A stretch of DNA of 64,000 bases from Eledone cirrhosa (taxonomy: Eukaryota), in assembly GCA_964016885.1 (NCBI GenBank), contig CAXHJY010000710.1, positions 1-64,000 on the forward strand. The letters are read 5' to 3'. The notes under the pieces were generated by a model, which saw nothing but the letters and a program-made list of their open reading frames with translations, did no database searches and was not told where the DNA came from. Positions 15,707 to 29,829 of the stretch are shown piece after piece. Numbering within the stretch: the first letter of the stretch is position 1; each line of letters starts with the position of its first letter. A program made the translations under genes and the position numbers.

Positions 15707-15760
<54 letters not shown>

Positions 15761-15814
15761 TAAACAAATAATGAATAAACAATGAAAACATTTCCTTATA
15801 TTAAACAAAAAAAG

Positions 15815-15968
15815 TTCATTATTTAACGATCGTTTCTAGGATATATATGTGTTAGAATTGGCATGCATATTCAACAGATCTATGTACAAAATTATACAAA
15901 ATTATACAAACTATCAAGATTAAATATACATACCAACACATATATACGCCGTCTTCAGAAATAATGAA
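15815..15968 (-). ncRNA. Hammerhead ribozyme with extended stem II, copy 1 (downstream pLTR)
   Basis: Reverse complement of 29476-29629. Confidence 0.8.
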
Positions 15969-16595
15969 GTATATTTATTGATAATAACAACAATTCAAAA
16001 TTTCAGGTCCGTTTGGGAACAAAATTGACCAATGAAAATACAAAAGGTTTAATGCAGTTCGGTGTGTGTATATACATGTAACTACCCTTACACATATTTT
16101 ACAAAAATGTATGCACAACTTGTATACGCATACTGAAAGGATGGATGCAAATACAAAATTTCAAGGTTAATGTCTCTGTAAGTTTATAATGCACAGATAA
16201 GATGCGTATAGACACATAAATATGAAATAAGTGTATAGACATATTTTCATACTCACACATATCCGTACAATCACACACACTCGCGCGTATATGCATAAAC
16301 ATACACATAACCACGAACATACAAACACACACACACCCCCACTCACATATATATATGTGGATATAAAATCATAAGCACATGGATATTAATTCACTCACAT
16401 AAACACTGGCACACACATTTAGATCAAGATACAGAAATTAGGTGGGAGGGGGGGAGAGGTCAGTATTCAACGGTTTGGGCAGACTGCTTAATATAGATGT
16501 ATCTATAAACTAAGAAAATAAAAAATAATAAATAATAAATAAACATTAAAAAGGAAAGAATAGAAAAAGAAAAAAGAAAAAAGGAATATATCAAG

Positions 16596-16679
<84 letters not shown>

Positions 16680-16819
16680 CACACACATACACACATACAT
16701 ATATATACACATATACAAACACATACATACATAAACACACATCCACACTAAGAACATACATACACACACATATATAAACATATACATATACATACATACA
16801 TATACACACATACATATAA

Positions 16820-16868
<49 letters not shown>

Positions 16869-17163
16869 AACACACATACATACACATATAATCACACATA
16901 CTATATAGACACACATATATATACACACATACACGCACATATACATACACTTACATACTTATATACATACAGATATACACATACATACCTATATATACAC
17001 ACAAATACATACAGACATACATACATACATACAGACAAATACTTACGCATCTATATATCGGTATATACATACAAACACCACTATACTATCACACAACTCA
17101 GACATACAAAGAAAAAGGTATATACCTATACACATATACATATACAAATAGAAAAACATATAC

Positions 17164-17250
<87 letters not shown>

Positions 17251-17450
17251 CACATACACACACATACACATACATACACATACATACATGTACACACACA
17301 TAGATATATATACACATACACACATACACACATACATATAAAGTCATACACACACATACACCTACACGAACATACACATACACATATATAAAGATATATA
17401 TACACACACACACACACACATACACACACACACATATATATAAAAAATAA

Positions 17451-17495
<45 letters not shown>

Positions 17496-17928
17496 ATATT
17501 AACTAGGTATATATCCAAAACACATCCCATTCTATGATTACATGACATTCTGCAATTGGTCTGTATAAGGATACCAATTTTAAGCCAATTAAATTAAATT
17601 TTTAGGTTGATTAAAATTAAAACCAAATAATAAATATATTTCTAAAATGTATATTAATTAGGTCTATAATACTAAAAATTATTTCTCTGTCATTGGATAC
17701 ACGATATTTTGTTATAATTTATCTGTAAAAGAATTATAATAAAAGGTTTAAATAAATTAAAATGAATCTATAAATTAAATTACTAAGTATATATTAGTAA
17801 TATTTAAAGGTTTTTCACAATTTATGATTACATAATATTTTATATTCTCATCTGTAATAGAATTTTAATTAAATTAAATTTATAGGTTAACTAACATTTA
17901 AATTAAATTAATTTCTAAAATAATGTTA

Positions 17929-27318: not shown

Positions 27319-27366
<48 letters not shown>

Positions 27367-27603
27367 GTATATATATATATATTATTTATTATTATAATAT
27401 AACTTATGTGTATGTGTGTATATGTGAGGGTGTGTATATGTATATAATATGTGTATATATATGTGTAAAAAAATATATATGTGCATGTCTGTTTTTTATG
27501 TGTGTGTATATATATATATATATGTGTGTATATATATGTATATGTGGGTGTTTGTATGTGTATTTATGGTAGTATGTGTGTGTGGGTATATATATATATA
27601 AGT

Positions 27604-27643
<40 letters not shown>

Positions 27644-27970
27644 ATATATATCTCTATTAATGCGTGTATATATGTATATGTATATGCCTTTTTCTTTGTA
27701 GGTCTGAGTTGGGTGAGGTTGTAGTGGTGTTTCTATGTATATACGCATATATGGATGCGTATGTATTTGTATATATGAGTATATGTAAGTGCGTATGTAT
27801 GTATGATTATATATCTAATTCTATGTATGAGTATATATGTGTATATGTAAGTTGTGTGTGTATGTATGTATATGTCTATGTGTGTATATATATATGTATG
27901 TATGTGTGTGTATGTATCTATGTATGTGTATGTATGTACATATATGTCTAGGTATGTGTGTATGTATATG

Positions 27971-28017
<47 letters not shown>

Positions 28018-28213
28018 TTTTTATATATATGTGTGTGTGTGTATGTGTGTGTGTGTGTGTGTATATATATCTTTATATATGTGTATGTGTATGTTCGTGT
28101 AGGTCTATGTGTGTGTATGACTTTATATGTATGTGTGTATGTGTGTATGTGTATATATATCTATGTGTGTGTACATGTATGTATGTGTATGTATGTGTAT
28201 GTGTGTGTATGTG

Positions 28214-28252
<39 letters not shown>

Positions 28253-28567
28253 ATATATATATATATATATATGTATATGTTTTTCTATTTGTATATGTAT
28301 ATGTGTATAGGTATATACCTTTTTCTTTGTATGTCTGAGTTGTGTGATAGTGTAGTGGTGTTTGTATGTATATACCGATATATAGATGCGTAAGTATTTG
28401 TCTGTATGTATGTATGTATGTCTGTATGTATGTGTGTGTATATATAGGTATGTATGTGTATATCTGTATGTATATAAGTATGTAAGTGTATGTATATGTG
28501 CGTGTATGTGTGTATATATATGTGTGTCTATATAGTATGTGTGATTATATGTGTATGTATGTGTGTT

Positions 28568-28636
<69 letters not shown>

Positions 28637-28780
28637 TTATATGTATGTGTGTATATGTATGTATGTGTGTATATGTATATGTTTATATATGTGTGTGTAT
28701 GTATGTTCTTAGTGTGGATGTGTGTTTATGTATGTATGTGTTTGTATATGTGTATATATATGTATGTGTGTATGTGTGTG

Positions 28781-28848
<68 letters not shown>

Positions 28849-29829
28849 CTTGATATATTTCTTTTTTCTTTTTTCTTTTTCTATTCTTTCCTTTATAATG
28901 TTTATTTATTATTTATTATTTTTTATTTTCTTAGTTTATAGATACATCTATATTAAGCAGTCTGCCCAAACCGTTGAATACTGACCTCTCCCCCCCTCCC
29001 ACCTAATTTCTGTATCTTGATCTAAATGTGTGTGCCAGTGTTTATGTGAGTGAATTAATATCCATGTGCTTATGATTTTATATCCACATATATATATGTG
29101 AGTGGGGGTGTGTGTGTGTTTGTATGTTCGTGGTTATGTGTATGTTTATGCATATACGCGCGAGTGTGTGTGATTGTACGGATATGTGTGAGTATGAAAA
29201 TATGTCTATACACTTATTTCATATTTATGTGTCTATACGCATCTTATCTGTGCATTATAAACTTACAGAGACATTAACCTTGAAATTTTGTATTTGCATC
29301 CATCCTTTCAGTATGCGTATACAAGTTGTGCATACATTTTTGTAAAATATGTGTAAGGGTAGTTACATGTATATACACACACCGAACTGCATTAAACCTT
29401 TTGTATTTTCATTGGTCAATTTTGTTCCCAAACGGACCTGAAATTTTGAATTGTTGTTATTATCAATAAATATACTTCATTATTTCTGAAGACGGCGTAT
29501 ATATGTGTTGGTATGTATATTTAATCTTGATAGTTTGTATAATTTTGTATAATTTTGTACATAGATCTGTTGAATATGCATGCCAATTCTAACACATATA
29601 TATCCTAGAAACGATCGTTAAATAATGAACTTTTTTTGTTTAATATAAGGAACTGTTTTCATTGTTTATTCATTATTTGTTTAATATTTTATCTTGACTC
29701 TGTATACCGTTTATCTTTCACCGAAAGTGATTTTTCATTACATCTCTTCTTTCCATGATATCCGGAATACATTGAGTTCTCCATACGGATTGGACACTAC
29801 CGTAAACTCTTGGTAGATTTATCTACATA
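26336..29829 (+). repeat. Right arm of inverted repeat (inverted pLTR) ending GGTAGATTTATCTACA-(TA)n
   Basis: Reverse complement of 20521-24004. Confidence 0.95.
29476..29629 (+). ncRNA. Type I hammerhead ribozyme with ~115-nt stem II, copy 3
   Basis: TTCATTATTT-CTGAAGA-[cggc GTATATATGTGTTGG...CTAACACATATATAT ccta]-GAAA-C-GATC-GTT-AAATAATGAA; 10-bp stem I, palindromic stem III loop, GUU triplet. Confidence 0.82.

Follow-up and report, generated by a model that had tools for sequence, protein, structure and literature searches.

The question raised by this locus is whether a Penelope-like element (PLE) can bring kilobases of microsatellite with it, and if so, which kind of element does it. 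The locus is a structure of about 14 kb (15752..29829, read on the minus strand) in a 64,000-nt stretch of Eledone cirrhosa DNA, positions 1 to 64,000 of contig CAXHJY010000710.1 (assembly GCA_964016885.1); this stretch, referred to below as the window, has 29.6% GC and zero N. An earlier note, made from the sequence alone, took the structure for a young element of the Naiad clade. We conclude that it is a known clade, Hydra, in an unusual form, with an oversized microsatellite-bearing 3' untranslated region (UTR) and a long-stemmed predicted hammerhead ribozyme, and that the microsatellite cargo is real for this insertion and unproven beyond it. Most likely a Hydra-clade PLE inserted once, recently, into (TA)n, and its UTR was duplicated inside that insertion, presumably through target-primed reverse transcription (TPRT) of RNA that the predicted hammerhead would cut out.

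Self-comparison and the resulting layout agree with what was described earlier, namely a young Penelope-like element that is partly repeated in tandem and partly inverted, and we judge the structure real. Segment 17370-19613 matches 24092-26337 at 98.4%, segment 20521-24010 matches 29829-26330 in the inverted orientation at 97.8%, and segment 15752-17498 matches both 20658-22365 and 29692-27965. The minus-strand order starts with the inverted 5'-truncated pseudo-long terminal repeat (pseudo-LTR; 26338..29829, plus strand, a copy of 24004->20522), the 3.5-kb inverted repeat already noticed earlier. It is joined by a 2-nt overlap at 26337 to a 5'-truncated copy of the open reading frame (ORF), also noticed earlier, which spans 24653..26337 (minus strand, 26337->24653) and retains residues 253-813. 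Then follow the long 3' UTR, or pseudo-LTR, of this truncated copy (20521..24652, minus strand, 4,132 bp, with the canonical 3' end at 20521), a unique 150-bp leader from the end of the upstream pseudo-LTR to the ATG (20371..20520, minus strand), the full ORF (17929..20370, minus strand) and the 3' UTR of the full-length copy in its short form (15752..17928, minus strand, 2,177 bp). The 4.1-kb UTR is therefore a feature of the middle copy only: the UTR of the ORF-bearing copy lacks 1,847 bp, corresponding to 24212->22366, and the last 137 bp. The 1,847-bp loss, joined at a TA run, had gone unremarked. Over the 1.75 kb that the three UTR copies have in common, three substitutions are private to each of them, besides changes in the length of TA runs, which fits one recent event and speaks against a duplicated assembly. 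Both ends of the insertion lie within (TA)n (15710..15754 at the left, 3', end and 29828..29847 at the right end), thus a target-site duplication is unreadable.

The general features of PLEs are all present, that is, a telomerase-related reverse transcriptase (RT), a GIY-YIG endonuclease (EN) and tandem and inverted pseudo-LTRs. Judging from motifs, domain order and comparison by eye with published sequences, the element is a Hydra-clade PLE. Hydra elements are described as having a C-terminal endonuclease, RWK, DKT (changed from DKG), CxCX5C, a hammerhead and (TA)n targets, as lacking CCHH and the insertion in the fingers domain (IFD), and as carrying CxxC and CxH around the catalytic E and N (PMC8557442). 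In this element the endonuclease occupies residues 670-801 of the single 813-residue ORF (VYKC...YIG at 693-709, R718, H722, E777, N790), and no N-terminal GIY-YIG domain of the Naiad kind is seen. The RT carries RWR at 37 and DKT at 115, and DK[TS] is present in 111 of 116 homologs. The cysteines are C673/C675/C681, C771xxC774 and C799xH801. Since just one Cys lies between the GIY- and YIG-like motifs, CCHH is absent, and the distance from motif A to motif B, 65 aa here and 64 in Hydra-2_Amil as counted by eye, leaves no IFD. Residues 181-212 equal those of Hydra-1_Obim at 21 of 32 positions, again by eye. Insertion in (TA)n is observed at both ends, at an older copy in the window and in 588 reads of run X16, both considered below. 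The descriptive trait "generally short, <3 kb" does not hold for this unit.

Other clades fit poorly. Neptune, Nematis and Penelope-Poseidon combine a CCHH motif in the endonuclease with DKG (PMC8557442), and the 813-aa protein contains no DKG, DKA or CCHH. The Naiad identity draws on the (TA)n target, the pseudo-LTRs and the tandem plus inverted layout, all of which Naiads share (PMC8557442). However, Naiads have a GIY-YIG domain at the N terminus, DKA, IFD, CCHH and CxC and no canonical hammerhead (PMC8557442), and none of these traits is found here: the endonuclease is C-terminal, DKT stands in place of DKA, IFD and CCHH are absent and a hammerhead is present. The domain order already rules the Naiad identity out, and we give it practically no credence. 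The Cys motif proposed as the Naiad mark does not serve as one, as a CxCX5C linker together with a C-terminal endonuclease defines Hydra (PMC8557442).

The 813-aa ORF is open throughout, 20370->17929, and encodes a Hydra-type RT, a linker and the C-terminal GIY-YIG endonuclease. Three details of the earlier description hold: the ORF is intact, its cysteines read CxCx5Cx5C (C673xC675x5C681x5C687), and the two ORF copies differ by two residues (K601/N and N724/H), these being the only two nucleotide differences in 2.1 kb, both non-synonymous. The protein itself is absent from the protein collection searched, where 116 homologs at 31–48% identity were found. D252, D348, D349, Y707, G709, R718, H722, E777 and N790 are each the majority residue of these homologs. 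The Pfam search yielded one family at E 0.093, nothing useful. The AlphaFold model has a mean predicted local distance difference test (pLDDT) score of 78.6, with residues 476-580 disordered, and its best six fold matches are telomerase RTs (TERTs; E 1e-8 to 1e-7). The disordered, N/K/T-rich linker between RT and EN (residues 463-585) is 122 aa long, compared to a median of 28 in 84 homologs, only two of which have at least 100. Both ORF copies have Pro443, a position occupied by Ser in 110 of the 116 homologs and by Pro in none; in the AlphaFold model it sits in a loop between two helices, and every mapped run has the Ser allele. The present activity of the element is thus uncertain, as the catalytic residues are intact but Pro443 is not what the family leads one to expect.

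The UTR of about 4 kb reported earlier is there in the middle copy, but it is not mostly microsatellite: alternating purine-pyrimidine sequence amounts to 44% in the long UTR, to 31% over the element as a whole and to 28% in the remainder of the window. The compound (TA)/(TG)/(TATG) block (21503..23415, minus strand) holds ten pure (TA)8-25 runs and an internal duplication with an offset of about 650 bp, 22570-22652 repeating 21918-22001 at 88%. Closer to the ORF end, AT-rich islands (23516..24652, minus strand) are split by a 126-bp microsatellite and contain degenerate copies of the ORF end, as the last 24 nt of the ORF recur at 24401, 24017 and 23798 with 2–3 mismatches (0 of 2000 shuffles). 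These recurrences and the 88% internal repeat suggest that duplication within the UTR and slippage of its microsatellites, and not the capture of DNA from the flanks, are the likely source of its growth. The blocks were indeed copied between repeats, as had been claimed, since 760 of 845 complex 25-mers of the compound block also occur in the inverted repeat of the element. On the other hand, none of the 845 is found elsewhere in the window, and of the 18,400 alternating bases in the window 4,413 belong to the element, 76% being outside. Support is therefore lacking for the idea that a large part of the local simple repeat is transposon cargo. The same is true of the idea that each insertion spreads kilobases: the earlier note had itself named copies without the blocks as what would refute it, and the one other family copy in the window (1 of 1) ends before the first block.

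A type I hammerhead motif, overlooked earlier, is present in all three repeats and in the older copy. The core (CUGAAGA...GAAA) recurs, together with stem I, 10 bp long, and stem III, which is palindromic, at 15958 (minus), 20864 (minus), 29486 (plus) and 62847 (minus). The predicted hammerheads span 15815..15968 (minus strand, predicted cut between 15825 and 15824), 20721..20874 (minus strand, the middle copy) and 29476..29629 (plus strand, the inverted copy). This is the hammerhead expected of Hydra, with core, stem I and stem III in four copies, though the stem II region is 115 nt long. The 115 nt between the core halves are predicted to form 43 pairs, with fold z-scores of −5.0 in the young copy and −6.2 in the older one. 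The differences between young and older copies preserve the stem II pairing (43 vs 44 pairs). In X16, 619 reads leave the window sequence at 20758, and the arm they carry complements the opposite arm better, as assessed by eye. A hammerhead match occurs in 0 of 1000 dinucleotide shuffles of the UTR. A hammerhead scan with an 80-nt limit misses the motif; among the best 150 of 155 Rfam matches over 15000-31000 there is no hammerhead family and none reaches the gathering score, nearly all being microsatellite-like microRNA or small nucleolar RNA models.

The position of this hammerhead is unusual as well. It lies 1,971 nt (short UTR) or 3,789 nt (long UTR) after the stop codon, and the first 440 bp past the stop contain none. 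Of 77 related loci from metagenomes, 69 have the C-terminal end and eight lack it, and 36 of the 69 have a hammerhead, located 47–304 nt after the stop, with a stem II region of 10–25 nt, about five times shorter than here, and no microsatellite in between. The other 33 gave no hammerhead, six of them with more than 1 kb downstream. Published Hydra hammerheads have a stem II of 3–7 bp (PMC8557442). Such baselines derive largely from short contigs broken at microsatellites, so that relatives with a long UTR may be under-counted. The minimal PLE hammerheads are of the same type I, reside in pseudo-LTRs and have a palindromic helix III suited to dimer cleavage, and their helix II of 7–8 bp is already termed "larger than usual" (PMC4209133), compared to about 43 bp predicted here. 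A literature search excluding subscription journals and bioRxiv supplements found no PLE hammerhead with such a long stem II among the papers listed.

The older family copy (62512..63420, minus strand) comprises only about 910 bp of the 3' terminus, including a hammerhead at 62703-62857. It shares its 3' end with the young element and breaks off ahead of the first microsatellite block. The terminal 309 bp of the young element are 93.9% identical to it, and the next 322 bp 83.1%. It is inserted in the TA/TATG tail of a long interspersed nuclear element (LINE), and the adjoining repeat belongs to that tail.

Beyond the window, a run search with 17500-21400 showed that 14 of the 18 listed runs hold part of this region, five of them at least half of its words, and no RNA run was listed as carrying the sequence. 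Reads and contigs of four of the 18 (X1, X4, X6 and X16) were mapped on 17472-21500, the edge repeats being skipped; generic (CA)/(TA) reads were taken to account for the spikes in depth and the loose ends seen at 20432-20460 and 21223-21262, which were discounted. The mapped contigs number 7,673 in X1 (organism A), 1,272 in X4 (B) and 1,089 in X6 (C). In X16, 588 reads from restriction site-associated DNA (RAD) leave at 20521 into (TA)n, which fixes the canonical 3' end; the older copy terminates at that base too. The summed contig depth in X1, which is not copy number and is affected by the different rates at which coding and UTR parts diverge, falls from 138k–530k at the 3'-terminal bins to 5k–80k over the ORF. 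It is highest over the last 500 bp and declines toward the ORF 5' end, as expected from 5' truncation. At ten listed sites essentially all mapped depth in every covering run differs from the window, hence the window's lineage is not the one in the mapped runs. Pro443 is among these ten sites. The X4 and X6 pieces, which bear two further species labels and have far lower summed depth than X1, are 98.6–100% identical to the ORF (362 bp at 0 differences, 442 bp at 3). Such near-identity may reflect either close relatives or recent transfer.

How the insertion may have formed can be outlined from the known biology of PLEs (PMC8557442, PMC4209133). The upstream pseudo-LTR would supply the promoter, and the hammerheads of successive repeats would cut RNA of unit length, which for the parent form means 6.7 kb. 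Nicking of the (TA)n target would fall to the C-terminal GIY-YIG domain, the RT would copy more than one unit off a circular or multimeric template, yielding the partial tandem, and a second priming event on the second strand would produce the inverted repeat with its 2-nt overlap at 26337. The insertion ends 210 nt and 73 nt past the predicted cut; a simple cut monomer cannot template these ends, whereas a circular or multimeric RNA could, and circular templates have been proposed for PLE hammerhead RNAs (PMC4209133). Judging from two junctions, the TA runs of the UTR may form pairs with the TA target, whereby a copy would be terminated or shortened, which would explain both the break point of the older copy and the 1.85-kb loss. 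Most insertions are likely short 3' fragments ending before the microsatellite, in which case only long insertions would carry it.

Several points weigh against this reconstruction. Self-cleavage of the hammerhead is predicted only, and in vitro the hammerheads of metazoan PLEs show weak cleavage (PMC4209133). Within the sequence covered, the long UTR is known from this single locus, and since the ORF-bearing copy has the short form, one has to add a template jump, a subsequent deletion or a collapse of the assembly at this place. Finally, Pro443 at a near-invariant Ser site may leave the protein impaired.

The alternatives differ mainly in how far beyond this locus, if at all, the long UTR extends. 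The tandem, the inversion or the 1.85-kb deletion could be an assembly artefact, given that the junctions are in or near low-complexity sequence, the deletion is joined at a (TA) run and none of the mapped pieces spans the structure. But every copy has private substitutions, at 18201 and 21061 one copy agrees with the other runs while another disagrees, and the layout is the one published for PLEs (PMC8557442), all of which makes an artefact highly improbable. The long UTR might instead be peculiar to this locus or its immediate parent, formed by nested insertion into a flank rich in microsatellite or by capture of such a flank through read-through. Hydra elements insert at (TA)n and hence lie next to sequence of that kind, between the two UTR forms here there is a difference of 1.85 kb, and hammerhead-bearing 3' ends abound in the TA arrays of the window. 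Against that, the region of 440 bp after the stop lacks the hammerhead that all 36 hammerhead-bearing relatives have close by, the post-stop UTR is covered in all four mapped runs, the UTR islands duplicate the element's own ORF end and the older copy has about 910 bp of the far 3' end in common, so that a purely local origin seems unlikely.

At the opposite extreme, the family would carry microsatellite on a large scale: the 4.1-kb UTR would be present in most long copies, each of them would seed new (TA)n targets, and much of the simple repeat of the genome would be cargo. As many as 4,413 alternating bases were laid down in a single insertion, the ten (TA)8-25 runs of each UTR resemble targets, the family is multi-copy in organism A with its 7,673 mapped contigs, and Penelope copies carrying simple sequence repeats are known in shrimp (PMC7878876). 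Yet the sole other family copy in the window has no block, complex 25-mers of the block are absent from the rest of the window, 76% of the window's alternating sequence lies outside the element and the depth is skewed to the last 500 bp; we regard this possibility as doubtful, if somewhat less so than a local origin. In its boldest form the idea amounts to a microsatellite factory that seeds itself: a Hydra lineage that inserts at (TA)n, carries ten (TA)n targets of its own in the 4-kb UTR of its transcript and has this transcript released by a hammerhead of a new form, with a stem II of about 43 bp. We hold this to be a speculative and rather unlikely proposal. Were it true, each long insertion would lay new landing pads, short-read assemblies would fail to show families of this sort, a good part of the simple repeat in such genomes would be explained by them, and standard descriptors would miss their hammerhead. 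The single recent Hydra-clade insertion, with the microsatellite copied within it, remains our preferred reading.

Compared to its published relatives (Hydra-1_Obim, Hydra-1_Ajap and Penelope-13_HM; PMC8557442), the element has the same single ORF with RT followed by GIY-YIG, the RWK-type motif, DKT, CxCX5C, CxxC/CxH, no CCHH, the (TA)n target and a type I hammerhead. An inverted 5'-truncated copy has also been described for Penelope-13_HM (PMC8557442). It differs in size: the long-form unit is 6,724 bp and the short form, from hammerhead to hammerhead, 4,906 nt, while the 14 complete Hydra families are 2,084–2,729 bp, and the terminal extension is 137 bp compared to 30–40 bp in Hydra-clade PLEs (PMC8557442). 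In Litopenaeus vannamei, recent Penelope copies, more than 98% identical, moved along with their internal simple repeats (PMC7878876). The likeness to the present case is that simple repeats travel with recent copies; the difference is that here a defined 3' UTR contains them as a compound block of 1.9 kb. The literature search listed no description of a Hydra element with a multi-kilobase microsatellite UTR, and neither PMC3124438 nor bioRxiv 10.64898/2026.07.22.740005, as far as their accessible parts go, changes our reading.

Other hammerhead-bearing 3' ends are found in the window. An ORF-less repeat with a hammerhead occurs in two outward-facing copies, 48462-48945 (minus) and 51771-52345 (plus), with 481 matches and eight mismatches, one of the two having a mutated core; each ends in a TA array, and 2.8 kb of compound microsatellite lies between them. 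The pair looks like another Penelope-type inverted insertion. The repeat at 14928-15600, of a different family and adjoining the element, has a hammerhead at 15116 (minus) with a 36-nt stem II, ends in a 5-kb TA array and has an inverted partial copy at 15469-15542. That array (9891-14927) contains a unique island at 11490-11860 with a hammerhead at 11596 (minus). The TA arrays of the window collect Penelope-like 3' ends.

The LINE mentioned above (55549-64000) has endonuclease and RT and an upstream Cys/His-rich ORF (55939-56700). Its tandem 5'-truncated copies (57794-59924, 60388-62517 and from 63919) are 99% identical, each ending in three copies of a 10-bp repeat and a TA/TATG tail. An LTR retrotransposon at 1792-7600 has 464-bp LTRs, 98% identical, and an integrase ORF, its coding region being spread over several ORFs. 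Segment 34347-37405, which we take to be Helitron-like, contains an ORF for a PIF1-like helicase (35954-37003) between related 27/59-bp minisatellite arrays. Two self-inverted repeats resemble miniature inverted-repeat transposable elements: 31682-32086 (407 bp, 96%), with a relative at 41897-42102, and 38842-39068 (234 bp, 84%).

Penelope elements carrying simple repeats are not new, and a genome-wide effect of this family is unproven. However, Hydra is a recently described and thinly sampled clade, with 27 families in the published table, all under about 3 kb (PMC8557442), and this copy more than doubles the Hydra unit length. A long-stemmed hammerhead falls outside the published descriptors, so that calls of "no hammerhead" elsewhere may merit a second look. 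The locus is a clear young case of microsatellite being part of an element's own RNA, and as such it bears on the question, posed in PMC7878876, of how transposons carry simple repeats.

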